64,000 nucleotides of DNA, taken from positions 1,293,684 to 1,357,683 of the forward strand of contig OY970296.1 in NCBI GenBank assembly GCA_963716175.1, in the 5' to 3' direction. Under the pieces are notes generated by a model. The model ran no database searches and was not told the origin of the DNA. It was given only the letters and a program-made list of their open reading frames with translations. Positions 3,077-60,240 of the stretch are shown piece after piece. Positions within the stretch are counted from its first letter, which is position 1; every line of letters begins with the position of its first letter. A program made the position numbers and the translations under genes. The DNA comes from an uncultured Armatimonadetes bacterium (lineage in GTDB: Bacteria > Armatimonadota > Hebobacteria > Hebobacterales > Hebobacteraceae).

Positions 3077-4018
3077 TTGCAGCGCGCTCCCATGAAGCGC
3101 TTTCTTGCCGCGGCCGGACTGCTGATCGCGCTCCCGCTCCTCCTCGCCTACGGGGCGGCGACGGCCGGCGGCCGTGGGCAGCCCCGCCCTGCCAGGCCCT
3201 TCGGTTCGGAGCGCGCTTACCACGACCTGGTGCGGCAGTGCGAGTTCGGCCCCCGCGTGCCTGGCACGAAAGCCCACCATAAGTGTGCGCAATGGCTGCT
3301 GGACCAGCTCAGAGGCTGCGCGCAGGAAGTGAGCCAGCAGAGCTTCACCCAGCAGGTAGGCGGCGCGGAAATCCGCCTGACCAACCTGGTGGCAATCTTC
3401 AACCCGCAGGGCAAAGGCCATGTCCTGCTCTGCGCCCATTGGGACAGCCGACCGATGGCGGACCGAGATCCAGACCCCGCGCGGCGCGCAGAGCCCGTAC
3501 CCGGCGCGAACGACGGGGCCTCGGGAGTGGCGGTGCTGCTGGAGATGGCGCGGGCCCTGAAGCGGCAGCCGCCCAAGGCGCGGGTGACCATGGTGCTGTT
3601 CGATGGCGAGGACTACGGCACGAGCGAGGCCAGCATGCTCCTGGGCTCGCGGCACTTCGCCAAGAGCTACGCGGGGCCGCCAGTAGACTGGGCCGTGCTG
3701 CTGGATATGGTGGGGGATCGGAATCTGCGGCTGCCGCCGGAGCAGACCTCCTGGCAGCAGGCGAGGCGAGTGGTGGAGCGAGTCTGGGGCGCGGCGGCGC
3801 GGGCGGGCAGCAAGGCCTTCGTGCGCGAGGCCGGCCCGGAGGTGATGGATGACCACGTCCCTCTACTGGAGCGGGGGATACCGTGCATTGACGTGATTGA
3901 CTTCGACTACCCCTACTGGCACACCACGGCCGACACGCCGGACAAGTGCTCGGCCGCGTCGCTGGGGCAGGTGGGGAGGGCGGTGCTGGAGGCGATCGGG
4001 GAGTATGGAGAGGAGTAG
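3077..4018 (+). CDS. Glutaminyl-peptide cyclotransferase / M28-family peptidase-like protein, secreted.
   Basis: Signal peptide; M28 motifs HWDSRP, PGANDGASGVAVLLEMARAL, VLFDGEDYG. Confidence 0.75.
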   Translation: MQRAPMKRFLAAAGLLIALPLLLAYGAATAGGRGQPRPARPFGSERAYHDLVRQCEFGPRVPGTKAHHKCAQWLLDQLRGCAQEVSQQSFTQQVGGAEIRLTNLVAIFNPQGKGHVLLCAHWDSRPMADRDPDPARRAEPVPGANDGASGVAVLLEMARALKRQPPKARVTMVLFDGEDYGTSEASMLLGSRHFAKSYAGPPVDWAVLLDMVGDRNLRLPPEQTSWQQARRVVERVWGAAARAGSKAFVREAGPEVMDDHVPLLERGIPCIDVIDFDYPYWHTTADTPDKCSAASLGQVGRAVLEAIGEYGEE

Positions 4019-6903: not shown

Positions 6904-6950
6904 CGGCGCGGTCCTATTCAGCCATTCATCAGGCCCTACCCCGGCACGGG

Positions 6951-7076
6951 CTAGAGCGCATTTCATAACCTACCGGCTGGCTGGCCGCACCACGCCCTCG
7001 CATGAAATGCGCCGGCCACGGCCTGACGTTGCGCAGTGCTGTTTCATAACCTCCCCTGGGAAGGTTATGAAACAGC
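6951..7076 (+). repeat. R1 structured repeat, copy 1 (126 bp, two hairpins).
   Basis: About 96% identical to 48215-48340. Hairpin 1 gcgcatttcat...atgaaatgcgc (11-bp stem, 35-nt loop). Hairpin 2 is the perfect palindrome gctgtttcataacct-cccctggga-aggttatgaaacagc. Confidence 0.85.
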
Positions 7077-7082
7077 TTCTAA

Positions 7083-7180
7083 CGAGCTTCGCCGAATGAA
7101 GTAACACGGCGAAGCTCAAGAGGCGGCCCAGACGGGCACAGGGCGATGTTCGCACATTACTTCGTTGTGCGAACATCATT
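7083..7180 (+). repeat. R2 paired-hairpin element, copy A.
   Basis: Hairpin 1 (7084-7117) has loop aatGAAGTAACa; hairpin 2 (7145-7177) has loop TTACTTCgt. The same architecture appears at 39076-39180 with different, compensatory stem sequences. Confidence 0.7.
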
Positions 7181-7182
7181 AG

Positions 7183-8703
7183 TCAGGCCACATCCTCGAG
7201 TCGCCGCAAGGCCTCCTGGGCCTCCTCGAAGCCCGGGGACAATTGGAGGGCGCGGGCAAAGCTGGCGCGGGCAGAGGCGAGGTCGCGGCGCGACTCCTGG
7301 ATCAGGCCCAGGTTGTAGCGGAATTCGGCGGCCTCGGGGAGCAAGCGCACCGCCTGCTGGGCCGGCCCCAGGGCGGCGTCATAGTCGCCGCCCGAGTAGA
7401 GGGCCATGGCGAGAGCGTCGTGGGCCTCTGCATTTTCCGGGTCGAGGCCACAGGCGCGCCGAGCCGCCCGCGCCGCACCTGCGAGGTCGCGGCCCTGGGA
7501 AGTCAGGGCGCGCGAGAGACCCAGGCAGAGCTCGCAGTCCTGCTGACCCAGCTCCCAGGCGTCGGCCATGGCGTGCTCGGCCTCCACCGGCTGGCCGGCT
7601 GCCTCCAGCGCCAGGCCCAAGTTGTAATGGACCCAGGGATCACCGGGAGCAAGCCGGGCTCCGCTGCGATAGTGCTCGGCCGAGGTCTCATAGAGGCCGA
7701 GCCCATAGTAGGCGAGGCCCAGCCCGCTGCAGGCCTCGGCGCTGTCCGGGCAGATGCGCTGCGCCGTCTGGTAGGCCTCGAGGGCTTCGTGGTGACGGCC
7801 CAGCTCGAGACAGGCGCGGCCGCGCTCGACCCAGATGTCGGAGTCGCTCGGGTCGAGCTGACCGGCCACTTCAAAGGCTGCGATCGCGGCCTCGTGATCG
7901 CCCAGCTCTCCGTAGGCCAGCCCGAGGTTGAAGCGAGCCACGGGATGGGTGGGGTCGAGAGAAAGCGCGTGCCGGTAGGAGCGGATGGCCTCAGGCACTT
8001 CGCCCAGCCCGCGGAGGGCGTTGCCCAGCTCGCAGGCGGCGGCGGCCCGGCCCTCCTCGTCCTCCTCCGGGTAGTGTTGCAGCGCTCGCTCCAGGTAGTG
8101 GCGCGCTCGCCGGCAATCACCCTGGGCGCTGTGGATTTGCCCGGCGGCGTAAAGCGCCTCATGCCACTCCGGCGCCAGCTCGCAGGCGCGCTCGAACTCG
8201 TGCCGGGCGCGGCCGCGATCGCTGAGCTGCTGGCTGGCCCAGCCCAGCCAGAGGCGGCAGTAAGCTTCGTCGCTACCCAAGGCCAGAGCGCGCTGGTACG
8301 CCTCCGCCGCCTGCTGGAACTCGCCTATCATGTAGTAAGCATCCCCGAGGTCGCGGTGCAAGCATGCGCTTAGCAGGACAGAGCCGCCCTGATTCTCTCT
8401 CACCCCCACCTGATAGTGGCCAATCGCCTCCTGGTATTGGCCCTGCAGGAACAGGACTTCGCCGAGCACGCGCCGGACCGCCGGGTCGGCAGCGGAGATC
8501 TCGACCGCCCGCTGCGCTAACCTCGTGGCCTCCTCCGTGGGCCCTTGCTGTGCCAGGGCCCAGGCCAGGGAAGTGAGCGCTTCCACGGAATCGGGGGCGA
8601 AGGCGAGAGCCTGGCGCCAGGCGAGCATGGCCTGCTCGCGCTGGCCGCTCTCCCACAGCGTCTTGCCGCGCTGATTGTCGCGATCGGCGTCAAGGGACTT
8701 CAT
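7183..8703 (-). CDS. TPR-repeat protein.
   Basis: Multiple 34-aa TPR-like repeats (AYY.G.Y..A...Y..AL.L.P). Confidence 0.8.
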   Translation of the reverse strand: MKSLDADRDNQRGKTLWESGQREQAMLAWRQALAFAPDSVEALTSLAWALAQQGPTEEATRLAQRAVEISAADPAVRRVLGEVLFLQGQYQEAIGHYQVGVRENQGGSVLLSACLHRDLGDAYYMIGEFQQAAEAYQRALALGSDEAYCRLWLGWASQQLSDRGRARHEFERACELAPEWHEALYAAGQIHSAQGDCRRARHYLERALQHYPEEDEEGRAAAACELGNALRGLGEVPEAIRSYRHALSLDPTHPVARFNLGLAYGELGDHEAAIAAFEVAGQLDPSDSDIWVERGRACLELGRHHEALEAYQTAQRICPDSAEACSGLGLAYYGLGLYETSAEHYRSGARLAPGDPWVHYNLGLALEAAGQPVEAEHAMADAWELGQQDCELCLGLSRALTSQGRDLAGAARAARRACGLDPENAEAHDALAMALYSGGDYDAALGPAQQAVRLLPEAAEFRYNLGLIQESRRDLASARASFARALQLSPGFEEAQEALRRLEDVA

Positions 8704-8816
8704 AGCAGATCAAGTCGCCCGGCATTAGGCTTCGCCCCCACGATTCAGCAGTCCTCTCCGCGCGGCGGGGCATCTGGCAGGAGCAAGCGCGACGGCGGCG
8801 GAACTACGCCAGCACC

Positions 8817-9656
8817 ATGCTGGAGGGTCACCTTTCCCTGGCGGAGATCGAGCGCCTCCGCGGCTGTCTCTGGCGGACCGATCCGGATCGCCAGATCCGG
8901 GACGAGCAAGGCGCCCTGCGCTTGATCCGCGAGCTCGGGTTCCTGCTGCTGATGCCCATCGCGGGGGCGGAGTTGCCCAGCATCCATCGGGCGACGCGGG
9001 ACGATTGGTCATGGTGGGACTGGAAGCAGACTCTGCCCGGCCGCAAAGCCTGCTACTACGCCAAAGTGCTGCGCCACCGCGGCACCTTCATCTCATGGCC
9101 CTGGTTCTCTCGGTTTCGAGCTGCGCTGGGAGACCGCCGCTCCTATCACCAGCTCTACCGGGAGGGCCTGCTCGACCGCGCCGAGAAGCAGCTCCTGGAC
9201 CTGCTGGCCGAGCACGGGCCCATGATGACGGGCGAGCTCCGCCTCGCCTTCGGCCCCCGCAGCAAACAGAACACGCGGCGGGTCAAGAGCATACTCGTAA
9301 GCCTCCAGAGGCGGTTCCTGATCACCACGGCAGGGGGCGACACCGAGGGCTGGAGCCATCACCGCTGGGATCTGGTGGAGCGGTGGGTGCGGGCCAATCT
9401 GCTGGCCGAGGCGGACCGCATCGCGCGCTCCACGGCGCGGGAGCAACTGCTGGTCAAGTGCGTCCAGAACGTGGTAGCCACGACGCCGGCGGACGTCGCC
9501 TGGCTGTTTGGATGGGAGCGCCCAGAGGTAGAGGCGATGGTGGGGAAGCTGACGGCCGCGGGCAAGCTGGGGAGGGCGGTGGCCCCGGAGCTGGAGGGGG
9601 AGGTGATCGTGCCTAACCCCTGGCCAGGGAAAGGGCGGGGACGCAGGGCGCGATGA
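8817..9656 (+). CDS. Winged-helix DNA-binding domain protein, YcaQ/AlkZ (HTH_42)-like; tentative.
   Basis: C-terminal wHTH-like segment LLDLLAEHGPMMTGELRLAF...LVSLQRRFLITTAG; assignment from pattern memory only. Confidence 0.4.
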   Translation: MLEGHLSLAEIERLRGCLWRTDPDRQIRDEQGALRLIRELGFLLLMPIAGAELPSIHRATRDDWSWWDWKQTLPGRKACYYAKVLRHRGTFISWPWFSRFRAALGDRRSYHQLYREGLLDRAEKQLLDLLAEHGPMMTGELRLAFGPRSKQNTRRVKSILVSLQRRFLITTAGGDTEGWSHHRWDLVERWVRANLLAEADRIARSTAREQLLVKCVQNVVATTPADVAWLFGWERPEVEAMVGKLTAAGKLGRAVAPELEGEVIVPNPWPGKGRGRRAR

Positions 9657-10489
9657 GTGAAGACAGCCACACGGGCGCGAGGCCGCTGAGTCCTCTGGGA
9701 CTCGCCGTCAGGTTCTACCTCGGACTGGGTGCGCCCGCGAAGCGGGGGAGCTTCGCGAGGTGCCTCCTCCGCGCGGCGCCGGCCTATCCGTTGGAACTGG
9801 TGCAGGCGCTGGTGTCACGTTACCGCGGGGCCAGCGATGCGCCTGAAGGTGCGGTCCAGGTCATCAACTTCCGCTGCGCCCGGATCAGGCCTGCCGGGTG
9901 CGATGGGGCCTTCTTCGTCAAGGAGTTCCCTAGGCACCACGCCCTGCATGATGTGGAGCGGTGGCTGCGCTGTTCTCGCGTGGACCGCGCCTGGCGCGCC
10001 GGGCACCTGCTGCCCAGGCTGGGAGTGCTGACGCCGCGGCCGGTGGGAACGGCACAGGCGCGCCTCGAGACGAGGGCCGTGGCCGAGTATCTGATCACCG
10101 AGTGGCTGGAGGGCGCGGCTCCGTTCCCGCAGTTGCTGAAGGGGGCAGGGGCCGAGCGGCGCGCGGTGCTGCTACAGGAGTTCGCGCGAGAGATGGCGCG
10201 CTGGCATAGCTGCGGCATCTACCTCCGCGACCTGGTGAAGAATGTGCTGGTGACGGAGGCGGAGGAGGGAAGAGGTTACTGGCTGACCGATCTCGACGGT
10301 CTGCATCCACTCCGCCGCGTGACGCGCCGGCGGGTGCTACAGCAGATGCGCCAGCTCGGACACTGGGCGAAGCCCCTGCGGCGGGAGGAGGCGAAGATGA
10401 CCGCCGAGACCTATCTCGGCGAGGCGCACGGAGACGGAGCAGAGGAGATCGTGCAGGCGCTGCTGTTGCCGTCCGCGGCAGCGGATTGA
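9653..10489 (+). CDS. Kdo/WaaP-family lipopolysaccharide kinase-like protein.
   Basis: FFVKEFP, YLITEWLEGA, GIYLRDLVKNVLV, WLTDLDGLH kinase-like motifs; ATGA overlap with the upstream gene. Confidence 0.55.
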   Translation: MSEDSHTGARPLSPLGLAVRFYLGLGAPAKRGSFARCLLRAAPAYPLELVQALVSRYRGASDAPEGAVQVINFRCARIRPAGCDGAFFVKEFPRHHALHDVERWLRCSRVDRAWRAGHLLPRLGVLTPRPVGTAQARLETRAVAEYLITEWLEGAAPFPQLLKGAGAERRAVLLQEFAREMARWHSCGIYLRDLVKNVLVTEAEEGRGYWLTDLDGLHPLRRVTRRRVLQQMRQLGHWAKPLRREEAKMTAETYLGEAHGDGAEEIVQALLLPSAAAD

Positions 10490-10540
10490 CCTGGTTCCCG
10501 GCGCCTGCTACCATACCGAACCAACCGCGGCAGGGAGGTA

Positions 10541-11476
10541 GTGATGCAAGACCCAATCGAGGCGTACTGCCACGTGGGTATCGTGCACCCGATGGCATTC
10601 CCCGAGGTGGCGGCAGGCGAGGGGCCCATCCTTGACACTCTCACCCAGATCGCGACCGACCCGTTCTTCTCGGCCGTCGAGGTGACCGCGATGAAGGACC
10701 GCAAGCTGCGCGCAGAGGCCGCCAGCTTGCTGGCCACCGCGGGCCTGGACGTAGTCTTTGCGGCGCAGCCGCCCCTGCTGCGGGAGCGGCTCAGCCTGTG
10801 CGATGCGAGCGCGGCCGCCCGCGAGAAGGCGGTTGCCCGCGGCAAGGAGCTGATTGACCAGGCCTACGAGCTGGGCGCCACCATCCTGGCCGTGGTCAGC
10901 GGACCTGATCCGGGTGAACCCGGCCGGGCGAAAGCGACCGAGGCCTTGATCGCATCTCTGAAAGCGCTGTGCGCGGACGCGCAGCAGAAGGCCGGCGAGA
11001 GTATGCTGTCCATCTCTCTGGAGAACTTCGACCGCGGCATTGACAAGAAGGCGCTGATCGGCCCCACCAAGGAGGCGGCCCAGGTGGCGGAGGCGGTATA
11101 CTCGGAGTACAGCAACTTCGGCCTCACCATTGACCTCAGCCATCAACCGCTGCTGCGCGAGAGCGCGCACGACATGGTGCTGGCCGCGGTGGACCACCTG
11201 ATTCACGTGCACGTGGGCAACTGCGTGGTCGCGGACAGCAAGCACCCGGCCTATGGTGATAAGCACCCCCGCTTCGGCGTGCCCGGCGGGGTGAATGGAG
11301 TGGAGGAGCTGAAGCGTTTCCTGGAGGCGTTGATCTACGCCGGCTACTTCAAGCGCAACACCCCGACCACGATGCCGGTGGTGAGCTTCGAGGTTCAGCC
11401 CCTGCCCGGCGAAAGCTCTGCGCTGGTGATCGCCAATGCCAAGCGGACGCTGATGCAGGCCTGGGCGCGAATGTAG
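10541..11476 (+). CDS. Sugar phosphate isomerase/epimerase (xylose isomerase-like TIM barrel).
   Basis: TIM-barrel isomerase pattern with conserved E/H/D positions (ISLENFD, HVHVGN). Confidence 0.7.
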   Translation: MMQDPIEAYCHVGIVHPMAFPEVAAGEGPILDTLTQIATDPFFSAVEVTAMKDRKLRAEAASLLATAGLDVVFAAQPPLLRERLSLCDASAAAREKAVARGKELIDQAYELGATILAVVSGPDPGEPGRAKATEALIASLKALCADAQQKAGESMLSISLENFDRGIDKKALIGPTKEAAQVAEAVYSEYSNFGLTIDLSHQPLLRESAHDMVLAAVDHLIHVHVGNCVVADSKHPAYGDKHPRFGVPGGVNGVEELKRFLEALIYAGYFKRNTPTTMPVVSFEVQPLPGESSALVIANAKRTLMQAWARM

Positions 11477-11726
11477 CTAGTGGAAGGCGGTGGGTCCGGT
11501 GAATTCGAGGGGGGAGGGAGGACCCTCCCCCCTCGATTCTTCCCCTCCCCCTCGGTCGGGCGGTGGAATGAGACGAGGCCGACGAGGATTTCGGGTGGCC
11601 TCGCCGAACACCGTGTAGGCGTTCTCTGTGGGGTTCCCAGGCTCGCGGCCGTTTCCGCTGGCAGGTATGCCTCCCCCCCGGCAGTCTCGTGAGGGCTTGT
11701 CCGCCGGCCGTGTGGAGGATTGACTA

Positions 11727-12710
11727 TTGATGAGCAAGGTCTACATCACACGCCCTCTGGCGGAAGAGGCGATGGCGATGGTGCGCGCGGCCGCCGAAGT
11801 GCGGATGTGGCCGGAGCCGGAGGCCCCGCCGCCGCGGGAGGTGATCTTGCGGGAGGTGCAGGAAGCAGATGGGCTGCTCTGTCTGCTCACGGACCAGATA
11901 GACGCGGCGGTGATGGAGGCGGGGAAGAAGCTGCGCGTGATCAGCAACTGCGCGGTGGGGTACGACAATATTGATGTGACGGCGGCCACCGCCCGCCGCA
12001 TCCTGGTGTGCAATACGCCCGGCGTGCTGACCGAGACCACGGCCGACCTGGCCTGGGCCCTGATCATGGCCGTGGCGCGGCGGATCGCGGAGGCCGATCG
12101 CTACCTGCGGGCGGGGAGATGGCGGAGCTGGTCGCCGCAACTGCTGCTGGGCCAGGATGTCTGGGGGGCGACGCTCGGGATCATCGGGCTGGGGCGAATC
12201 GGGCAGGCGGTGGCGCGGCGGGCGAGGGGCTTCGAGATGCGAGTGCTGTACACCGATGTGACGCGTCGCACGCAGGCCGAGCAAGAGCTGGGCGCTGCGT
12301 TCGTTCCGCTGCCGGAACTGCTGCGGCAGTCCGATTTCGTCTCGGTCCATACTCCGCTCACGGCGGAGACGCACCATCTGATCGGAGCGGCCGAGCTGGC
12401 GATGATGAAGCCGAGCGCGGTGCTGGTCAATACCTCGCGGGGGCCGGTGGTGGATGAGCGGGCGCTGGCGGAGGCGCTGGGCGAGGGCCGCATCTTCTCC
12501 GCGGGCCTGGATGTGTTCGAGGAGGAGCCGCTGCCCAAAGAGAGCCCGCTGCTCGGGATCGAGCGGGTCGTGCTGCTGCCGCACGTTGGCTCGGCCAGCG
12601 TCGCCACGCGCACCCGCATGGCGCGCATGGCCGCGGAGAACCTGGTGGCCGGCCTGGCGGGCCGGCGACCACCCTATCTGGTGAATACGGAGGTGCTGCC
12701 ATCATGTTGA
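11727..12710 (+). CDS. D-isomer-specific 2-hydroxyacid dehydrogenase (glyoxylate/hydroxypyruvate reductase-like).
   Basis: NAD-binding [16 protein letters not shown] and catalytic R/E/H signature (SVHTPLT...LVNTSRG...LLPHVGSA). Confidence 0.85.
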
Positions 12711-37457: not shown

Positions 37458-38147
37458 CTACATACTACGGGAGAGCACAGCGAAAGGCAAGGACGAGGGC
37501 CGCCGATGTGTGACCACGAAGATCAGAGAAGAGAACAAGCTGCTCCGGGAGAGCTGGTTGATCTCACCATAGCTCCAGGAGACCAGGTCCCCATTCCCCT
37601 CCTCCGCCCCGGTGGGGTTGTTCGCCGGGTCGTAGCTGTAGGTGAAGATGGAGATCACCGTCCCGTCCGACTTGCGGTTGCGCACCGCCTGGATTCGGCC
37701 GGCATCGTCGTATTGGGTCTCGGCGCGGCTGCTGTTGCCATAGGTCATGGTGGTGGGCCGGCCCAGGTCGTCGTACTGGTAGGTGCTCACCCCGCCGGTG
37801 CCGCGGTTCACCACCGCGGTTATCCAGTCGCGGGCATTGTAGCTGTAGTCAATGTAGCTGCCCGGCCGCGTCATCCGCGTCCGCCGCCCGCCGTCGTGAT
37901 AGGTGAAGCTCACCGTCACGCTGTTGGGATTCGTCGCCGAGGAGAGCTGGTTCCGCCCGTTGTAATCATAGCTGAACACGTCCTCTCCCGTGACCTGCAT
38001 GCTCGACACCAAGCCGACTCCGTTATACTGATAGGTCGTCGTCTTGGACGTCTCCGCACTCACCGTCACGGATTTCAGCCATTTACTCGGATAGTAGACC
38101 TGGGTCGTGGTGCCCGATGCATCCCGCGTCTCCGTGATTGCTGTCCC
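37458..38147 (-). pseudogene. Rhs/YD-repeat protein fragment (copy 1); no start codon, bounded upstream by in-frame stops.
   Basis: YQYNGVGL, YDYNGRNQL, YQYDDLGRPTTMTY, YSYDPANN repeats; positions 37497-38036 are duplicated at 38796-39437. Confidence 0.6.
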
Positions 38148-38174
38148 TGATTCCCCAGGACTGAGTGTTTCCTA

Positions 38175-38555
38175 TCACTTTCTCTTCACTAACCTGGCCA
38201 GCAGCAATGCTAATACTACCGGTATCCCTAGTAGCCCGGCCCAATAGCTATAGTCCCTCGGAAGGCGATATTTCAGCCACGGACCCATCAGAAGCGACGG
38301 AAGGAAAAAGGCCAGGTTGGTGATAACCGCTGCCCACAGGGGCACGACCAGCCCGCGGCCCTCCACCGCAGTCAACACATAGAAAGAACCAAGACCCGCC
38401 AGCTCCAGGAGGAGTCCCAGGTATGCAATGAACAGAGGCGTGTGCTCTGCAATCCAACGTGCTCCTGGAAGCCGCCATCCCTCCATAGCGAGTATGACCC
38501 AGAGCACGAGGAGTATCCCGAACGTCTCGGGTAGTTTCCGGCTACGCCGGCTCAT
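38175..38555 (-). CDS. Four-TM small membrane protein between the two Rhs fragments; possibly an immunity protein.
   Basis: Hydrophobic helices; position downstream of an Rhs C-terminal fragment. Confidence 0.35.
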   Translation of the reverse strand: MSRRSRKLPETFGILLVLWVILAMEGWRLPGARWIAEHTPLFIAYLGLLLELAGLGSFYVLTAVEGRGLVVPLWAAVITNLAFFLPSLLMGPWLKYRLPRDYSYWAGLLGIPVVLALLLARLVKRK

Positions 38556-38724
38556 AACGCCACACCGTCTGTCACACCAGCCCTTCTTCCTTCTCACTCA
38601 GCGGAGACACTTGCTACACTTTTCCATGCAATGCAGGGATTCGCCGGCTAGCAGCAGCGAACCGACCCCAGAGGCCGGCTCAGCCCAAGGGGCGATTTTC
38701 TCGGCCAGCCGAGGAACTAGGGCT

Positions 38725-39437
38725 TTAGAGTACCTCGCCCACGCCCTGAACCTTCTGTCCGTGAAGTGGTAACAGATTCTGGCGGTCCAGCGGGGGCCGC
38801 CGATGTGTGACCACGAAGATCAGAGAAGAGAACAAGCTGCTCCGGGAGAGCTGGTTGATCTCACCATAGCTCCAGGAGACCAGGTCCCCATTCCCCTCCT
38901 CCGCCCCGGTGGGGTTGTTCGCCGGGTCGTAGCTGTAGGTGAAGATGGAGATCACCGTCCCGTCCGACTTGAGATTGCGCACCGCCTGGATTCTGCCGGC
39001 ATCGTCGTATTGGGTCTCGGCGCGGCTGCTGTTGCCATAGGTCATGGTGGTGGGCCGGCCCAGGTCGTCGTACTGCTAATGAATGTCGCCCAAAGAAGTA
39101 ACGGGCGACATTCATCAGAAAGCCAGGGAATGCCTGAAGAAAGACGCTCGCGCAATGTTACTTCATTGCGCGAACGTCGGTAGGTACTCACCCCGCCGGT
39201 GCCGCGGTTCACCACCGCGGTTATCCAGTCGCGGGCATTGTAGCTGTAGTCAATGTAGCTGCCCGGCCGCGTCATCCGCGTCCGCCGCCCGCCGTCGTGA
39301 TAGGTGAAGCTCACCGTCACGCTGTTGGGATTCGTCGCCGAGGAGAGCTGGTTCCGCCCGTTGTAATCATAGCTGAACACGTCCTCTCCCGTGACCTGCA
39401 TGCTCGACACCAAGCCGACTCCGTTATACTGATAGGT
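38725..39437 (-). pseudogene. Rhs/YD-repeat fragment (copy 2), 5'-truncated and interrupted by a 105-bp R2 insertion.
   Basis: Near-identical to copy 1 except for the insertion at 39076-39180 and a divergent tail. Confidence 0.55.
39076..39180 (+). repeat. R2 paired-hairpin element, copy B, inserted into Rhs fragment copy 2.
   Basis: Absent from the otherwise identical copy 1 (gtcgtactg|gtaggtg). Hairpin 1 loop aaaGAAGTAAC; hairpin 2 loop GTTACTTC (exact reverse complement). Confidence 0.8.
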
Positions 39438-39628
39438 TGGAGTGAACCCCTCTGACTGGACAGTTCAAGGGGTCGCCACTATGCGAGTCGACGCGGAGGG
39501 CCGCTAGCTCTCGTTGTGGTGCCAGGGACTTGAGGACGGCGCGGATCCCCACGCCGGCGCCTGGAGCCACTGGCGCCAGCACCAACGTCAGAAGAACCAA
39601 CCTCCGGCGGCTCAGCATAGCATCTCTC

Positions 39629-40654
39629 CTATGGGCATCGGAGCCACGACGCGTCCTCCCCGCGGACGAGTGTCAGGGCCTCACCGGACTCTGTGTTTAT
39701 GGCCCTCACGAGTGACAGCCCTTCCACCGCGTAAGGGCCACCAAAGACCCCACGGGAGGGGTGCCTTCGCTGGAAGTGGCGCTCCGTGAATAACACCCAC
39801 CTCTCGTCAGGGCTCCAGTGGATGTCCTCGATCTGTGTCACCTCTTTCGTGAAGACCGGCAAGGCCTGCACCGTCTGCCGCTTCAGGCCACTCGCTGTAA
39901 CCACCGCGAGCGACCGCCCCATATCGGCGACCGCCAGCATCTGGCCCGATGGGGCAAGGGAGACATAAGACGCAATGGCCAGCTGCCCGCGCGGTACGCT
40001 GAGACTTGCCCCGTCAAGGGTCAGTTCGAGTGGCGGCAATGAGCGGGGATCCTGCAACCAGGAGCGGATGTCCTGCGGCACAAGCGTCCGCGGAAGATGC
40101 TGCAGTACCTGGCTAATGCCACTCGCGCGCTCTTGCCGGCGTTGTTCGACTGTATGCCTACCGCTGAGCGCAACCGCACCAGAGTTCATGTTCCACACTA
40201 GTTCGCGGTATCCTTTGTGCCCTTTCCACTCATCCGTGACCCCAAGGAGCACCTGCGCGTTGTCCAGCCACATCGGATAGTCGAAGAGGAATGAGAACTC
40301 GGCTTTTAGGCGCAAGGACATGGCGGCCTCATCCGCGTCATCCAGATCCACCAGCGTGAAGGTGTACCGCCCTTGCCCGCTGCTCCACAAGAATTCCTCC
40401 TGCACCACGAGCGCGCGACGACCATCGGGGGAAATCGAGTAGAAGGGACGCGACAGCAGGCGCGCCTCCGGGTTACGCCATCGCCAGAGGACACGCTCAT
40501 ACTCGCTTGCGTACCGGCACAGCCGCAACTCGCCCCCTGGCCGCTCCATCGTCTGGTAAAGCAGACTCATGGTCGGGACGCTCTCGTTCTGCCGGCCCTG
40601 TCCGCTCGCAGCGTGCGCGGTCAGGAGCGCGAACATGGCCAAACTAGCCAGCAT
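39629..40654 (-). CDS. Secreted TolB-like (PD40) beta-propeller protein of unknown function.
   Basis: Signal peptide MLASLAMFALLTAHAASG; SISPDGRRALV and HWSPDERWVLF propeller motifs; lower-GC region. Confidence 0.45.
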   Translation of the reverse strand: MLASLAMFALLTAHAASGQGRQNESVPTMSLLYQTMERPGGELRLCRYASEYERVLWRWRNPEARLLSRPFYSISPDGRRALVVQEEFLWSSGQGRYTFTLVDLDDADEAAMSLRLKAEFSFLFDYPMWLDNAQVLLGVTDEWKGHKGYRELVWNMNSGAVALSGRHTVEQRRQERASGISQVLQHLPRTLVPQDIRSWLQDPRSLPPLELTLDGASLSVPRGQLAIASYVSLAPSGQMLAVADMGRSLAVVTASGLKRQTVQALPVFTKEVTQIEDIHWSPDERWVLFTERHFQRRHPSRGVFGGPYAVEGLSLVRAINTESGEALTLVRGEDASWLRCP

Positions 40655-40673
40655 CAGGGGCCACCAACCAGCA

Positions 40674-41165
40674 TCACCTCGACGAGGCCCTCGGGTTGCC
40701 CGCGTCTCCGGCATTGTTGAGCAGGTTCTGCAAGCACTGCTTTTCAGCGCCATACGCCGCTTCCTCGCTTGGGTACTCGTCGGCTTGCTCTCCGAAACCG
40801 TTATGGGCCTCACATTGCTGCCGATGGGTTGGTTCATGTGCGTTAACCAAGCACTCCTTCACACAGGCTTGCTCGGGTTTCAGCTGACGCCACGCGTCGC
40901 AGTAGAACGTCCCAGTCTTCACCTTCCACACGCCTGACTGGCTGCACTTCTGCTTCTCATACGCGCAGCAACATGCCGTGCACACGTACCAGCGACTGAC
41001 TGATCCACCCGGGTCGAACCAGTGCGCGAGTATCTGGTCGATCTCTCGGATGCGGGCATGGATGGCTTGCTGCTGGTGAGAGGAACGGTCATCAGTGCAC
41101 GTGGTAGGTTCGCACACGTCCTTGTCTGTCAAACACGACAAAGAGGATCTCCACAGCCAGATCAT
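40674..41165 (-). CDS. Cys-rich hypothetical protein; the start is uncertain and it overlaps the upstream gene.
   Basis: More than 14 Cys in about 150 aa; no clear start downstream of the upstream stop. Confidence 0.2.
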   Translation of the reverse strand: MIWLWRSSLSCLTDKDVCEPTTCTDDRSSHQQQAIHARIREIDQILAHWFDPGGSVSRWYVCTACCCAYEKQKCSQSGVWKVKTGTFYCDAWRQLKPEQACVKECLVNAHEPTHRQQCEAHNGFGEQADEYPSEEAAYGAEKQCLQNLLNNAGDAGNPRASSR

Positions 41166-41490
41166 GCAGTTCGTAAACCCAGACTTCATCCTCTTTTGAA
41201 GCGTTGAGCCTGACACCGTACTTGGCCTCGACGGCACCGGGCGACATCACGGACTCCGGCATCCCCAGCCTTGCGTGGATCTCACCCTGGGTGAATCCGG
41301 GCACGACCAAACGCTTAACGTGCGACCTCGCGAGCCGGGGCGAGATACGCCAGAGACAGAAAGAGTTCAGCCCCACCCACAAGATCGCCACGCTAATCAC
41401 CAGTGAGGTCGCGACTATCACTCGCCGCACCCACTTCGCTCGCCGTAACCCGTCGCCCCACCAACTCGATCCAGCGCTCTGTCGTGACAT
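41092..41490 (-). CDS. Membrane-anchored SmpA/OmlA (BamE)-like small protein.
   Basis: N-terminal TM helix; pattern GFTQGEIHARLGMPESV...WVYEL...ILFVVFDRQGRVRTY resembles the BamE fold consensus. Confidence 0.45.
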   Translation of the reverse strand: MSRQSAGSSWWGDGLRRAKWVRRVIVATSLVISVAILWVGLNSFCLWRISPRLARSHVKRLVVPGFTQGEIHARLGMPESVMSPGAVEAKYGVRLNASKEDEVWVYELHDLAVEILFVVFDRQGRVRTYHVH

Positions 41491-41909
41491 ACCTGCTACC
41501 CCCTAGCTGGACTGCACCCCTGGGCCTGGACAGAGCGGGGCAAGATGCGCCACCCTCTGATGAGGCGGGTTCGTGCTTCGCAGCGAAGCGCTCCTTCGCA
41601 GAGTAGCGTAGGAAACCACCTCGCTCTCGCCGCCGCCGGTGAGCTGCATGGTGGAGTGGCTAGACCTGCTGCGCAGGCCGCCATGGCGGTCTCTGACGGC
41701 GACATAGCCACCCAGGGCCTCCCCTCGACTCCGCTCGGGCCGGCCGTCACGGGAACCGGGGCCCGGCCGACGCGAATACTACGCTCACGCACAGGGAAAT
41801 ACAAGCACGGCTGCCGGCGCGCTGTAGCCGCCATAGCGCCTTAGGCGTAGCTATATGCCCGGCTCACGCCATGCAGCCCGGAGGACCCTCCTGAGGCGGG
41901 CAAGCCGGG

Positions 41910-47815: not shown

Positions 47816-48342
47816 CGTCGCTCTCCCTGTGGCAGTGCCGCCACGGTCGCCTACCTGTTCGCTCCTCCCCGGCCAATTCCTTTCCCAACCCAGACCGGTC
47901 CAACCACCTCGTTCCCAGCCAGACCAGCCGACGTTGCTGGAGAAGGTCCGTCGTTCCCCAGAGGAGGTACAGGTCTTGTGGAGCCGAGAGTTGGGGATGG
48001 AGTAGTAGCTGTACTTAGAGAGATAATAATAATAATGATAAGGGCTGTGGATCAGGTGAAAACCACAGGGTAACCCGATGAAGTGGGCGGTTGTTATCCC
48101 CTGGCTGAAGAAGGAAGGCTGCGGATGGTTGTTGATAGAGTGAGCGGTGGCTAGCCGAGAGGTCCGGATTCCCGTGCCTGGCCCGGTGATGCACTTGTTG
48201 TCCACAGGCAAAGGCTAGAGCGCATTTCATAACCTCCCTGCTGGCTGGCCGCACCACGCCCTCGCATGAAATGCGCCTGCCACGGCCTGACGTTGTGCAG
48301 TGCTGTTTCATAACCTCCCCTGGGAAGGTTATGAAACAGCTG
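47816..48342. promoter_or_regulatory. oriC: oriC candidate in the dnaA-dnaN spacer.
   Basis: DnaA-box-like 9-mers TGTGGATCA (48046-48054), TTATCCCCT (48094-48102), TTGTCCACA (48197-48205). AT-rich tract gagataataataataatgataag at 48018-48043. R1 repeat copy 2 sits at 48215-48340. Confidence 0.55.
48215..48340 (+). repeat. R1 structured repeat, copy 2, within the dnaA-dnaN spacer.
   Basis: About 96% identical over 126 bp to 6951-7076. Confidence 0.85.
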
Positions 48343-49710
48343 CTAGCCTTCGGTACGGAGCCTGGCGCCCAGCTCGTTGATCAGCGCTTGCACAGAGCTG
48401 TCCTGCATCTGCTGTCTGATCTTGGTGCAGGCGTGAATGACGGTGGAGTGGTCTTTGCCCCCGAAAGCGCGGGCGATGCTGGGGAAGGAGGCACTAAGCA
48501 GCTCGCGGCAGAGGTACATGGCAATCTGGCGGGCATGGACCACGTCCTGGGTGCGGGTCCGCGCGACCAGCTCGGCGATGGTGAAGTTGAAGTGCTCGGC
48601 CACCAGTTGCTGGACGCGGCTGATGCTGAGGGGTTGTTGGTGGTCCTCGAGAGAGTGATCCCGGAGCTGCTCCGCGGCGAGGGAGAGAGTGATCTCGGCG
48701 TGGGTGAGAGAGGCGGCGGCCAGCACCTTGATGAGGGCACCCTCCAGCACCCGGATATTGGACTTCACCACCTTGGCGATATAGCGAAGGACCTCGTCCG
48801 GGACGGGGATGCTCTCCGCTTGGGCCCTACGGGCGAGGATGGCCAGTCGGGTTTCCATATCCGGCGGCTTGATATCAGCGATCAGCCCCCACTCAAAGCG
48901 AGAGCGGAGCCGGTCGTCCATGATCTGGAGGTCCTTCGGGGGGCGGTCGCTGGTGATGACGACCTGGCGGCCGGTCTCGTAGAGCGTGTTGAAGACCTGG
49001 AAGAACTCGGATTCGGTGCGCTCCTTGGCGGCGATGAACTGAATATCGTCCACCAGCCAGAGGTCCACCTCGCGATACTTCTTGCGGAACGTACCGAAGC
49101 GATCGTCCCGAATGGAGGAGACGACGTGAAAGGTGAAGGTATCGCCGGAGACGTACTGGACGCGAAGGCCGGGATGCTTGGCTGCGCTGTGATGGCCGAT
49201 GGCCTGCATGAGGTGAGTCTTGCCCAGGCCCACGCCGCCATAGAGGAAGAGGGGATTATAGGAGTCGCCGGGCTGGTTCGCGACCGCGAGCGCGGCGGCC
49301 TGAGCAAACTGATTCCCCTTGCCCACCACGAAGTTCTCGAAAGTGTACTTGGGATTGAGGGGAGTGGTGAGGAGGGCCTCGCTCTCACCGCGGGAGCCGG
49401 AGGCCGGGGGCCGCCTGCGGCGGGGCACCTGCTCTTCGAGGGCGAGGTCGAGCTGGGCGAGTTCGAAGTGCGCTTTCAGGGGTCGGCCCACCACTTGCTC
49501 GAGGGCGGCCTCGATGGCCTTGAGGCCATTCTTCTGGAGCCAGTCGCGCGCGAACTCACTGCCGACGGAAAGCTCGAAGGTGTCCTGACCGAGGACCTCG
49601 GGACGTACGTGCTTGATAGAACTCCCGAAAGAGGGGCGAGAAAGCTTGCTGCCCAGCGCCCTTAGCACCTGCTCCCACACCTGCTGCACCGACGGCTGCG
49701 ACTCCCGCAT
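48343..49710 (-). CDS. dnaA: Chromosomal replication initiator DnaA.
   Basis: AAA+ Walker A GGVGLGKTHL, Walker B LWLVDDIQF, C-terminal DNA-binding domain. Confidence 0.95.
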   Translation of the reverse strand: MRESQPSVQQVWEQVLRALGSKLSRPSFGSSIKHVRPEVLGQDTFELSVGSEFARDWLQKNGLKAIEAALEQVVGRPLKAHFELAQLDLALEEQVPRRRRPPASGSRGESEALLTTPLNPKYTFENFVVGKGNQFAQAAALAVANQPGDSYNPLFLYGGVGLGKTHLMQAIGHHSAAKHPGLRVQYVSGDTFTFHVVSSIRDDRFGTFRKKYREVDLWLVDDIQFIAAKERTESEFFQVFNTLYETGRQVVITSDRPPKDLQIMDDRLRSRFEWGLIADIKPPDMETRLAILARRAQAESIPVPDEVLRYIAKVVKSNIRVLEGALIKVLAAASLTHAEITLSLAAEQLRDHSLEDHQQPLSISRVQQLVAEHFNFTIAELVARTRTQDVVHARQIAMYLCRELLSASFPSIARAFGGKDHSTVIHACTKIRQQMQDSSVQALINELGARLRTEG

Positions 49711-56931: not shown

Positions 56932-57302
56932 AGACCTCGGCGAGCGTCACCGGTGGTCTGGGGCGCGCCGCCCGCGCGGGCATTGCCCTGGTGCGGAGCT
57001 ATCAGCAGTGGATGAGCCACCTGAAGCCGCGGACCTGCCGCTATTACCCATCGTGTTCCCAGTACGCGGTGCGCGCCATCGCGGCGCGAGGCCTGATCCG
57101 GGGTGGCCTGCTGGCGGCCTGGCGCGTGCTGCGGTGCAACCCCTTCTCGGCCGGGGGATATGATCCGGGGCCGTGGGAGGCAGAGGAATCGGGCGGCGGG
57201 CATGCAGAGATGGCTAGGTCGCCTGCCGCGACCGCCGTGCCGGCCGAAGGCCTAGCCACATGCCGGCCCGACAGGGCCCGAGTGGGAGAGGGCGGCAGAT
57301 GA
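56928..57302 (+). CDS. yidD: Membrane protein insertion efficiency factor YidD, with a C-terminal extension encoded by an inserted R3 repeat.
   Basis: CRYYPSCSQYA...LRCNPFSAGGYDPGP core; the ORF then reads through 57186-57282 to TGA 57300-57302, which overlaps the yidC ATG. Confidence 0.7.
   Translation: MKTSASVTGGLGRAARAGIALVRSYQQWMSHLKPRTCRYYPSCSQYAVRAIAARGLIRGGLLAAWRVLRCNPFSAGGYDPGPWEAEESGGGHAEMARSPAATAVPAEGLATCRPDRARVGEGGR
57186..57282 (+). repeat. R3 MITE-like element, copy X2 (internally shorter).
   Basis: ggcgggcatgcagagatggctaggtcgcctg...ggcctagccacatgccggccc; aligns with 35797-35920. Confidence 0.7.
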
Positions 57303-58702
57303 AGAGGCGCTGGCCGCTGGCGCTGCTGCTGATCCTGTTGCCCCTGCTGACGGGATGCTTCGGGGCCGGGGGCATGCCAGTGCCCATAGACCAGCTCCGA
57401 GACCTGCAGACCAAGTTCGAAGAGTTGGATCACGCCAGCCGGAAGGAAGTTGACAGCCAGCTGGCGACGCTTCAGCAGCAAGTGGCGCAGGTGGCGCAGA
57501 GCAAAGACCGCGCGGTGCGGGAGCAGGCGGGGAGGGAGCGGTTGCTGGCGGCCTATTGCTGGGAGCGGCGGGGCGACTTCTCCGATGCGGAGCGCAACTA
57601 CGCCGAGGCCGGTAAGGGTCCGTATGCCGTGGTGGCGCTCTTCCGACTGGCGCAGGTGGCCGAATACCAGAAGGCCCAGGCCGAGGCGGAAGCGCAGAGC
57701 CCGAACCTGGAGGAGACGCGCCGCAGAGAAGCGGCCGAGATCGCGAAGCTGGAAGGGAAAAAAGAGGTCCGAGCCCTGGAGCGAGTGGCCAACTTCCCCG
57801 TGGGCAGTGAGGTGCTGCTGCGAGAGCCGCTGGTGGCCTCGCTCCCGCTGCAGGCCTGGCATCTGGGGGCCGTCAGGCATGAGGCCTATGACAGGTTGGA
57901 CGGTTACTACCGCACTCGCACCTCCTACCAGGTGATGGCCTTTCTGGTCAGGCTGTGCGGCGGCACGCAGCAGGTGGGCCAGCCAAAGAAGAGCTACCCC
58001 TACATTCTGGCGATCGTGCTGATCGCAGTGCTGGCGAAGTTGGTCACCACCCCGCTGACCGCGGCGCAGTTCAAGTCCATGCGCGCCATGCAGGCGATGC
58101 AGCCCGAGCTCAAGAAGCTGCAAGAGAAATACAAGGACGACAAGCAGCAAATGAGCCGGGCGCAGATGGAGTTGTTCAAGCAGCACAAGATCAACCCCGC
58201 CAGCTCCTGCCTGCCGATGCTGATCCAGTTTCCCATCCTGATCTGGGTCTACTATGCCATTCGCTATTTCGTGTATCAGTTCGAGGGGGTGCACTTCCTC
58301 TATCTGCCGAGCCTGGCAGAGCCGGATGTGATCCCGGTGGGAGTGGGACCGTGGCCCGGTCCGCTGCTGGTGCTGTATGGGGTGAGCATGTACTTCTCGC
58401 AGAAGCTGCTCTCGCAGCCGACGGCCACGCCGGAGCAGCAGCAGCAGCAGAAGATGATGGCCTACATGATGCCGGTGATCCTGCTGTTCGTGCTCAAGGG
58501 GCTGCCGGCGGCCTTCATCCTGTACTGGCTGCTCCAGAACATCCTCATGACCGGGCACCAGTGGCTGATCATGCGGCCCCAGCGGCTAGTGCAGGCGACC
58601 GCGGCCGCGGCGGCGGCAGCACCACCGCCGCTGCCACCGGAGGCGATCCAGAAGCTGTCGCAGGGAAGTCGGAGCGGCAAGAAGAAGAAAAAGCGGCGCT
58701 AG
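57299..58702 (+). CDS. yidC: Membrane protein insertase YidC (lipoprotein-type N-terminus).
   Basis: Lipobox LLTGC; C-terminal 60-kDa insertase core (LPMLIQFPILIWVYYAI...). Confidence 0.85.
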   Translation: MKRRWPLALLLILLPLLTGCFGAGGMPVPIDQLRDLQTKFEELDHASRKEVDSQLATLQQQVAQVAQSKDRAVREQAGRERLLAAYCWERRGDFSDAERNYAEAGKGPYAVVALFRLAQVAEYQKAQAEAEAQSPNLEETRRREAAEIAKLEGKKEVRALERVANFPVGSEVLLREPLVASLPLQAWHLGAVRHEAYDRLDGYYRTRTSYQVMAFLVRLCGGTQQVGQPKKSYPYILAIVLIAVLAKLVTTPLTAAQFKSMRAMQAMQPELKKLQEKYKDDKQQMSRAQMELFKQHKINPASSCLPMLIQFPILIWVYYAIRYFVYQFEGVHFLYLPSLAEPDVIPVGVGPWPGPLLVLYGVSMYFSQKLLSQPTATPEQQQQQKMMAYMMPVILLFVLKGLPAAFILYWLLQNILMTGHQWLIMRPQRLVQATAAAAAAAPPPLPPEAIQKLSQGSRSGKKKKKRR

Positions 58703-58833
58703 TGAGGGGCTGGCGCGGCAAGCGATGGGAGCACAGGGCGCGGGGTGAGGCGGACAGCAGTTCCTATGATCTCCCAACGGGGTTGACGGCGACAGGCGGC
58801 CTGGGGGATGGGGGCTAGGGAGGCGAGAGGCCG

Positions 58834-59472
58834 ATGCAATCCATCGAACAGTCTGGGCGCAATGTTGAAGAGGCGGTGCAGAGCGCGCTGAAGGCGCTGG
58901 CGGTGACGCGCGACCAGGTGGAGGTAGAGGTGCTGGCCGAGCAGAGCCGGGGGCTGCTGGGGATCCTGGGCCACACCGAAGCCAAGGTGCGGGTGACGGT
59001 GAAGGCGGGGGTGGCGCAGCGGGCGGTGCAGGTGCTGCAAGAGATCCTGGGGCACATGGGTATCGAGGCCACCCCGGAGATCACCGCGGATGACGCGGAG
59101 GCGGCCTGGATCAACCTGCGCGGGGGCGATGACCTGGGGCTGCTGATCGGAAAGCGAGGGCAGACGCTGGCCGCGCTGCAGTTGATCACGGCCATGATGG
59201 CCAACCGCGAGCAGCCTCCAGAGAACCGGAAGAAGGTGATTCTCGACGCGCAGGGCTACCGGGAGCGGCGAGAGCGGGCGCTGGAGTCCATGGCTCGCAA
59301 CGCGGCCGACCGGGCGAAGCGAAGCGGCCGGGAAGTGAGGCTGGAGGCGCTCGCCCCGCGGGAGCGCCGGATCGTGCACCTCACGCTCGCCGAGGACCCG
59401 GGGGTGAGCACCCGGAGCGAAGGCGAGGACCCGGAGCGGGTGGTGATCGTCTCCCCCCGGCATACCCGGTAG
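58834..59472 (+). CDS. jag: Jag/KhpB RNA-binding protein (KH + R3H).
   Basis: R3H motif region ...RERRIVHLTL... Confidence 0.8.
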   Translation: MQSIEQSGRNVEEAVQSALKALAVTRDQVEVEVLAEQSRGLLGILGHTEAKVRVTVKAGVAQRAVQVLQEILGHMGIEATPEITADDAEAAWINLRGGDDLGLLIGKRGQTLAALQLITAMMANREQPPENRKKVILDAQGYRERRERALESMARNAADRAKRSGREVRLEALAPRERRIVHLTLAEDPGVSTRSEGEDPERVVIVSPRHTR

Positions 59473-59491
59473 CGCGGGCCGCATCCAGCCC

Positions 59492-60240
59492 ATGGACGAC
59501 CCCGTCGGCGAGGCCGAGCGATGGCGGCGGGCGCTGGTCGAGGGGGCCGGGGAGCTGGGCCTGTCCGTGTCTGAGGCGGAGGGCGCGGCCTATCGCAGAC
59601 ACTTCGAGCTGCTCCTGCTGCACAACCCGCGCGCCGGCCTCACCACCATCACCGACCCGGTGGAGATTGCGGTCAAGCATTTCCTGGACTCCCTCACCGG
59701 ACTGCTGGTGCGCGAGATCGCGGCTGGCGCGCGAGTGGCGGAGGTGGGATTGGGGGGTGGCTTCCCGGGGGTGGTGCTGGCGGTGGCCCGGCCCGCGGCC
59801 TGCTACACCCTGATCGAGGCGAATCGCAAGCGGGCGGCCTTCCTGTCGGATCTGATCCAGACGCTCGGCCTGCCCCAGGTGTCGGTGATCGCGGCGCGGG
59901 CCGAGGAAGTGGGCCAGCGTCCGGAGCACCGGGAGAGCTATGACCTGGTGGTGAGCCGGGCGGTGGCGCCGCTCCCGGTGCTGCTCGAGTACCGCCTCCC
60001 CCTGGCGCGGGTCGGGGGAGAGGCGCTGGCCTACAAGGGCCGCGAGGTGGAGGCGGAGATCGGCGAGAGCGCGGCGGCGCTCGCGAAGCTGGGCGGCCGG
60101 ATCGCGCGGCTGCGGCGGCTGTCGCTGCCCCAGGACATGGGGGAACGGGTGCTGGTATTAGTCGAGAAGTTGGCCTCCACGCCGGCCGCCTATCCGAGGC
60201 GGCCGGGCGCGGCGAGGAGGCGGCCGCTGGGCGGAAGGGA
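59492..60240 (+). CDS. rsmG: 16S rRNA (guanine527-N7)-methyltransferase RsmG. The ORF lacks a stop for another roughly 500 nt.
   Basis: RsmG motifs and typical C-terminal ...YPRRPGAARRRPLG. The downstream extension is low-complexity and overlaps the next gene, so the end is approximate. Confidence 0.65.

Follow-up and report, generated by a model that had tools for sequence, protein, structure and literature searches.

A probable IS630-type MITE family with covarying fold-back arms, one copy of which interrupts an Rhs-repeat remnant

The R2 elements found in the 64-kb window (the whole stretch of DNA analysed, 64,000 nucleotides) are very probably non-coding MITEs of the IS630/Tc1-mariner type, because their termini match those of a transposase-bearing IS, they have TA/CTAG flanks, many copies occur with unrelated flanks, and a paralogous empty site is available for one of them. 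At the level of sequence, the element appears to carry every feature by which an IS630-type MITE is recognised; it is thus an element of a known kind that forms a new family in an under-studied phylum, with covarying fold-back arms as its distinctive trait. The MITE would derive from an IS630-family (Tc1/mariner superfamily) DDE transposon and would be mobilised in trans by an IS630-family DDE transposase, for whose bipartite N-terminal HTH the 24-bp terminal repeat (consensus ATGAnnnTCGCnnAAnGAAGTAA) is predicted to be the complete site, by analogy with ISY100 and Tc3. This transposase would excise the MITE by double-strand breaks and integrate it at TA, preferably within 5'-CTAG-3', with duplication of the TA.

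The copy of R2 referred to here as element B lies in a duplicated Rhs fragment. A repeat search found the fragment at 37494-38036 again at 38791-39437 with an additional block in the second copy, and in the pairwise alignment a single 104-nt gap separates the longer copy 2 from copy 1. The initial annotation had described a 105-bp insertion in copy 2 of otherwise identical Rhs copies, and of this description the extra block and the precise empty site stand, while the block measures 104 bases, with the element body at 39079-39180, and the flanks of the two copies share 98-100% identity, with mismatches that include one adjoining the insertion on the left (G 37779 vs C 39076). The filled site reads ...CTGC-TA-[102 bp]-TA-GGTA in copy 2 vs ...CTGG-TA-GGTG for the empty site in copy 1, where G-TA-G at 37779-37782 contains one TA only, at 37780-37781. 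The absence of a target-site duplication claimed earlier is contradicted by the TA at 39077-39078 and again at 39181-39182, as against the lone TA of the empty copy. On the minus strand, copy 1 (37458-38069) retains an unbroken RHS-repeat frame, and the RHS-repeat coding remnant of copy 2 (38725-39413) has Pfam RHS_repeat matches at 38725-39045 and 39183-39413 with B between them. Element B is non-coding, with a body of 102 bp that breaks the Rhs reading frame and has no gene of its own; the body is missing from the paralogous copy and has family copies elsewhere. The proposal of a mobile, MITE-like, non-autonomous element that arrived after the Rhs fragment had been duplicated is supported, and B would accordingly have entered the Rhs-repeat remnant after that duplication. 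The surrounding region (37458-41900) is low in G+C (0.60-0.63) and consists of the duplicated RHS-repeat fragments followed by ORFs without Pfam matches (39629-40837 and 40674-41237), an arrangement suggestive of arrayed orphan modules, either Rhs C-terminal or immunity ones.

The segment at 39076-39183 has the layout C-TA-ATGAATGTCGCCCAAAGAAGTAACGGGCGACATTCA-(linker)-GACGCTCGCGCAATGTTACTTCATTGCGCGAACGTCGG-TA-G, in which the left duplicated target TA (39077-39078) is preceded by C 39076, in keeping with the C-TA flank consensus, and the right duplicated target TA (39181-39182) is followed by G 39183. The left terminal inverted repeat, ATGAATGTCGCCCAAAGAAGTAAC (39079-39102, plus strand), aligns with the IRR of a 1,110-bp IS630-family element described below and comprises the 5' arm and the 'loop' of hairpin 1. 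It is followed by the 3' arm of hairpin 1, GGGCGACATTCA (39103-39114, plus strand), which is internal and complementary to the outer half of the left repeat, is delimited by the fold and by covariation, and is without counterpart in the full-length IS. A linker (39115-39142), the least conserved part between subfamilies, joins hairpin 1 to hairpin 2, whose 5' arm, GACGCTCGCGCAAT (39143-39156, plus strand), is likewise internal and complementary to the outer half of the right repeat and is again delimited by fold and covariation. The right terminal inverted repeat (39157-39180, minus strand), with the minus-strand reading CCGACGTTCGCGCAATGAAGTAAC, aligns with the IRL of the IS.

Further copies exist, as the initial annotation had proposed to establish by a genome-wide pattern search. 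The scans used the pattern CTAMYGANNNTCGCNNAANGAAGTAA, which is fitted by all four hairpin units of the window and in which CTA is fixed at one end. When one genome per species was scanned, 36 matches were obtained on 34 contigs of one Armatimonadota MAG (SPRUCE 339), where they form near-identical doublets that measure 103 bp when the C of the left flank is included and the final base of the element is taken as the end, and that have unrelated flanks. Single doublets also came from a 'Chloroflexi' MAG, at ∼93% identity to B and with the two-hairpin layout and unrelated flanks of the Armatimonadota copies, and from an unclassified MAG. A scan of metagenomes yielded at least 120 loci with many subfamilies, and copies of B at 90-97% identity occur at more than 40 metagenome or MAG loci with unrelated flanks. 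The window is collinear at 5005-12656 with locus L001 (JBEKKD010000010.1, contig 10 of SPRUCE 339) and at 57299-60229 with L045/L027 of the same MAG, at 69-75% nucleotide identity, which places the source organism near that lineage and probably within the Armatimonadota. The positions of the MITEs differ between the window genome and the Armatimonadota MAG: where one genome has A/R1 (a second copy of R2 and its neighbour, described below) or the L001 copy, the syntenic site of the other is empty, with the A/R1 intergenic region too diverged for a base-precise junction. Among 91 insertion sites with sufficient flank, ∼7 are seemingly intragenic and 27 lie within ∼40 nt after the stop codon of a long ORF; mostly intergenic placement is as expected for a tolerated selfish element whose target contains a stop codon. 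Solitary units near contig ends (L018, L024, and L029) were considered as ends of a long IS and rejected, as the alignment identified them as truncated MITEs with no common downstream sequence.

Two structural variants were also observed among the copies. In L146 (∼3475-3690), two Armatimonadota-type MITEs lie head-to-tail with one common TA (...CGTCCG-TA-ATGACTTTCGCCC...), as expected if the second MITE had inserted into the duplicated TA of the first. A ∼66-bp derivative found in L031 (∼1990-2053), L073 (∼6890-6954), and L018 (2120-2185) keeps both termini and lacks the linker and most of hairpin 2, with the break at a GCGAA microhomology, and represents either a transposing sub-subfamily or a repeated deletion.

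Since the search pattern forced CTA at one end of each doublet, the target was scored at the ends that the pattern left free. At the free ends of 117 distinct doublets, C is present in 110/117, T in 113/117, and A in 110/117 (∼94% C-TA), with a weaker pyrimidine preference one base beyond C-TA, and G outside the TA was found in 0/117. The right-end tetranucleotide is NTAG or NTAA in 37/39 cases, G follows the right TA in 33/39, and both A and B have TA at each end. The target read from these flanks would be TA, preferentially within CTAG, with the TA duplicated, which is the signature of the IS630 family; CTAA, which had been put forward as a possible target for insertion-site mapping, gives way to a duplicated TA within C-TA...TA-G. 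For the window pair itself, the reading with TA duplication requires one substitution (the G vs C adjoining the TA), whereas a duplication-free insertion of 104 bp requires none; the latter fits this pair, yet it is contradicted by all the other evidence. As G never occupies that position in the 117 free ends and the flanks of the two copies differ elsewhere, Rhs copy 2 most likely carried CTAG at the time of insertion.

The second copy in the window, element A (7080-7181), consists of TA at 7080-7081, a 98-bp body at 7082-7179, and TA at 7180-7181, with C 7079 and G 7182 as flanks, and its hairpins (7084-7117 and 7145-7177) fold like those of B. The second element of the same layout that had been placed near 7083-7180 is hereby confirmed, at 7080-7181, and copies of it with 92-97% identity were found in L041, L084, and L124. 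Element A lies directly after the stop codon of a TPR-protein gene and adjoins R1, a second TA/CTAG MITE family with one copy at 6953-7081 and another at 48217-48345. R1 is ∼125 bp long, with C-TA...TA-G flanks and the terminal repeats GAGCGCATTTCATAACC and GAAGCTGTTTCATAACC, each of which is paired with an internal complement (fold-back arms), as in R2. The first base of R1 is G and the last is C, which recreates CTAG at both junctions, and the R1 junctions would therefore be hot spots for more insertions; the R2-TA-R1 junction was found again in metagenome loci. Element A adjoins R1 because it sits in the right-hand TA of R1, itself a TA/CTAG MITE, such that the right TA of R1 (7080-7081) is the left TA of A, and the modular mosaic suggested for A and R1 resolves into two TA/CTAG-targeting MITEs with one TA in common. 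The annotation of R2 and R1 is thereby settled in a poorly studied, mostly uncultured lineage, and the behaviour of the two families shows how mosaic repeat clusters and pseudogene insertions originate.

A full-length relative of R2 was found in metagenome loci. Among the matches listed, ∼16 metagenome loci have the unit at a gene end and not in a doublet, with the unit overlapping the stop codon of a conserved gene on the opposite strand. In L047 this gene consists of two overlapping ORFs with matches to HTH_23/HTH_33 (E = 8e-19) and DDE_3 (E = 2e-27), and the ORFs match positions 1-137 and 138-289 of NCBIfam transpos_IS630. The nearest plasmid homologues of the transposase are annotated as IS630 family transposase and are at most 46% identical to it; full or partial copies of the transposase were located by tblastn in 16 loci at 78-100% amino-acid identity, and no gene for this IS630-family transposase was found by tblastn in the 64-kb window, the sampled contigs of the Armatimonadota MAG, or the 'Chloroflexi' MAG contig. 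Complete IS copies measure 1,110 bp in L047, L078, and L114 and 1,246 bp in L117; each is flanked by C-TA...TA-G and has terminal inverted repeats of 23-24 bp, ATGACTGTCGCGTAA[A/C][G/A]AAGTAA. The MITE ends match these IS repeats at ∼19-20 of 24 positions, and the alignment ends at ∼24-26 nt with little similarity beyond; the right-end form of the IS, AAAGAAGTAA, resembles hairpin 1, and the left-end form, AACAAAGTAA, resembles hairpin 2 of the Armatimonadota subfamily. Because the repeats of the IS and of B differ at ∼5/24 positions and the match is limited to the termini, the sampled IS is regarded as a relative of the true parent and not necessarily as the parent. A full-length IS200/IS605 sharing these ends had been suggested as the partner to look for; the relative found instead encodes an IS630-family DDE transposase and not a Y1 HUH enzyme.

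In L047 (852-1908), L053, L078, L114, and L117, the transposase is split into two overlapping ORFs, of which the second is always in the +1 frame. The constancy of this split across the sampled copies, whose proteins share only 83-89% identity, suggests programmed frameshifting of the transposase rather than decay. The 1,246-bp IS of L117 (13-1258) contains ∼136 extra bases inside orfA, where the tblastn match is split with an overlap, and the extra bases are either a duplication or an insertion.

Two hairpins with complementary loops had been described in the extra segment, and both the fold and the loop sequences bear this out. Either strand of the B block folds as two strong hairpins (z = -8.7 and -8.8; 0/200 shuffles as good), whose loops contain GAAGTAAC at 39095-39102 and its reverse complement GTTACTTC at 39157-39164. 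In the window, 4 occurrences of the octamer GAAGTAAC or its complement were counted vs 0.23 expected, 3 of these being in the hairpin loops of A and B, while the second loop of element A is ATTACTTC, differing from GTTACTTC. When read as 5'-CTA-NN-stem-loop-stem, the four hairpin units of the window align mutually and have in common GA...TCGC..AA.GAAGTAA...GCGA...TC; the units conserve the outermost G-C and A-T pairs together with the TCGC/GCGA block further in, and covary only at the 3-4 pairs between them. The stems had been called completely different and compensatory, of which the compensatory change holds, and the complete difference does not, with the outer pairs and the TCGC/GCGA block shared. 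In a set of 58 distinct units drawn from many subfamilies, 97.9% of the stem cells are paired vs 80% in shuffles, and double-sided changes occur in 81 cells, a number reached by 0/500 shuffles; the alignment was fitted to the hairpin model, and the pairing and double-change counts are inflated by related sequences. Shifting the pairing partner in the 58 units abolishes the stem complementarity, a smaller hand-made set agrees, and four stem pairs each show several pair types, which argues that pairing is maintained despite the inflation of the counts. Stem pairing thus appears to be maintained across the MITE subfamilies.

The ends of the full-length IS are unfolded (z = +0.8 to -0.6), whereas the MITE ends fold (z = -7.2 and -4.7), and the fold-back arms (3' in hairpin 1, 5' in hairpin 2) are found only in the MITEs and are missing from the full-length IS. 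As the IS ends do not fold, the hairpins are not explained by a simple internal deletion of the sampled IS; they would arise in the MITEs only, where a complement to the outer half of each repeat stands on its inner side. The loops are the inner halves of the left and right inverted repeats, with '5' arm + loop GAAGTAA' corresponding to the 24-bp terminal repeat, and the complementarity of loop with loop follows from inverted-repeat symmetry, with no kissing interaction needed. R2 cleanly illustrates a pitfall for structure-based RNA discovery, namely that terminal inverted repeats may be mistaken for conserved loops on covarying stems. For the copies of the recent Armatimonadota burst, the data are weak, and the pattern used in the scan fixes the left half; here the hairpin-1 internal arm and the hairpin-2 loop are as variable as the linker, and the outer half of the right repeat is, on the same weak data, the most conserved part, which hints that the pairing constraint acts on transposition-competent lineages and not on every resident copy.

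The resemblance to IS200/IS605-derived PATEs that the initial annotation had drawn, together with the related possibility of a REP doublet (REPIN/BIME), is one alternative to the IS630 reading. Such an element would be moved as a single strand by a Y1 HUH transposase (TnpA/RAYT) with recognition of the hairpins and inserted 3' of CTAC/CTAA with no duplication, and this model, built on the tag and hairpin units and on the duplication-free fit, was dropped once the IS630-type full-length element had been found. It accounts for two strong hairpins with covarying stems, for a tetranucleotide tag one base from each hairpin foot, for doublets inverted like HH REP dimers (PMC3733652), and for the empty and filled sites of the window, which a 104-bp duplication-free insertion fits with zero mismatches. 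It is nevertheless very improbable, as the only protein-coding relatives with these termini encode an IS630-family DDE transposase and Y1 transposases have no match in the family-bearing DNA: tblastn with IS608 TnpA, IS200 TnpA, and E. coli RAYT as bait gave nothing below E = 0.09 in 1.05 Mb, and the same three probes revealed no RAYT gene flanked by units in the 1.05 Mb around family members. The left-end and right-end hairpins of IS200/IS605 are direct repeats on one strand, whereas the two hairpin units of R2 are inverted copies of each other. In addition, the tag 5' of the hairpin is CTA(A/C) and not GTAG, which stands only 3' of the hairpin, TA within C...G flanks both element ends, and the ends of the full-length IS have the same 'loop' sequence without a hairpin. 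PATEs and R2 are alike in being small and non-coding with hairpins near their ends, but PATEs have direct hairpins at their ends, no inverted repeats or duplication, and a Y1/TnpB partner, whereas R2 ends in inverted repeats, has its TA duplicated, and has a partner with a DDE (DDE_3) transposase; the R2 elements thus lack a Y1 partner, same-strand hairpins without inverted repeats, and duplication-free insertion, as well as the GTAG tag of REPs.

A structured RNA (or RNA pair) with kissing hairpin loops as its primary identity and with spread as a secondary matter is a comparably slight prospect. In its favour, complementarity between the loops extends over 7-8 nt, the stems remain paired, in places by G-U, and most copies are intergenic, often just downstream of genes, and so probably transcribed, but the complementarity invoked for kissing loops is automatic in inverted repeats, and the same sequences lie 1.1 kb apart in the IS, where the loop sequence is conserved at the termini and no hairpin forms. 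No Rfam family matches the element (in an Rfam scan of the window, one tRNA alone reaches the gathering score, and nothing does so at the element), copies are found in either orientation and also within a pseudogene, and the weak data from the recent Armatimonadota burst, with an internal hairpin-1 arm and a hairpin-2 loop as variable as the linker, also speak against a primary RNA role. A deletion or precise excision in Rhs copy 1, instead of an insertion in copy 2, would suit a comparison confined to two paralogous copies with no orthologous outgroup for the Rhs site, and it too is highly unlikely: the limits of the extra segment coincide exactly with the termini found throughout a high-copy mobile family, and TA stands on either side, the RHS-repeat frame of copy 1 is still uninterrupted, and the loss of exactly one element and one TA would amount to precise excision, so the segment would still be a transposon. 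Least credible of all is an IS5-family MITE with a 4-bp CTAG/YTAR duplication, like the 100-nt MITEPsy1, for which the size (100 + 4 nt) and the CTAG/YTAA target motif agree (PMC3189936); the four end bases are not direct repeats (CTAA vs GTAG in B and in most copies), TA alone is repeated, and the full-length relative belongs to the IS630 family and not to IS5.

As IS630-type MITEs, the R2 elements have their closest described analogue in RUP of Streptococcus pneumoniae, a 107-bp TA-targeting MITE that has been tied to IS630-Spn1 by repeat similarity (PMC2229807). Both are non-coding elements of ∼100 bp with IS630-matching repeats, insertion at TA with its duplication, and a high copy number, and in both cases the link to the transposase comes from the similarity of the repeats (PMC2229807). 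The R2 host is in contrast Armatimonadota-like with 67% G+C, the sequences are unrelated, the R2 repeat spans 24 bp vs the 9 contiguous bp given for RUP, and each R2 repeat has its own fold-back arm, which results in two hairpins vs one long stem-loop. In ISY100, the 24-bp inverted repeats suffice for transposition and are bound by two HTH motifs, and TA is duplicated (PMC2170065); IS630 favours TA within CTAG, according to Tenzen and Ohtsubo (1991) as cited in PMC2170065. The 1,110-bp relative agrees with IS630 and ISY100 in its ∼24-bp repeats, N-terminal double HTH with DDE_3, TA duplication, and CTAG preference, and it differs in a transposase that is at most 46% identical to the annotated plasmid homologues and split in two frames in every sampled copy, while the window elements are without a gene. 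With REP, BIME, and REPIN sequences, R2 shares covarying stems in short palindromic units, a 'head-head' arrangement of inverted dimers spaced 20-100 bp, and a mostly intergenic location, often just downstream of genes (PMC3733652), but a 5'-GTAG tag in REP orientation is missing from R2, the 1.05 Mb searched revealed no RAYT, the R2 termini match a DDE transposon, and TA is duplicated.

That the fold-back arms are a selected, MITE-specific adaptation and not an accident of descent is a tentative suggestion that is rather unlikely to be correct; it is raised because the arms are absent from the autonomous IS, compensatory changes occur across subfamilies, and the design recurs in R1. Our best guess is that the arms may be kept by selection on intrastrand pairing in transposition-competent lineages, or that a REP-like effect on RNA or DNA structure might make intergenic copies tolerable. 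If the arms are selected, hairpin- or cruciform-capped repeats would boost trans-mobilisation by IS630-type transposases or serve the host in a REP-like role, such as mRNA 3'-end protection or DNA structure, in Armatimonadota-like bacteria. The covarying fold-back arm, if functional, would also give new insight into how MITEs out-compete or outlive their parent IS. In L064 (794-835), the hairpin-1 palindrome runs through the terminus into the flank (CTAACGAG...CTCGTTAG), where the rest of the subfamily has CGTCAG, and the inner boundary of the fold-back arm in this copy has the look of another terminus, inverted and followed by a degenerate form of TA-G.
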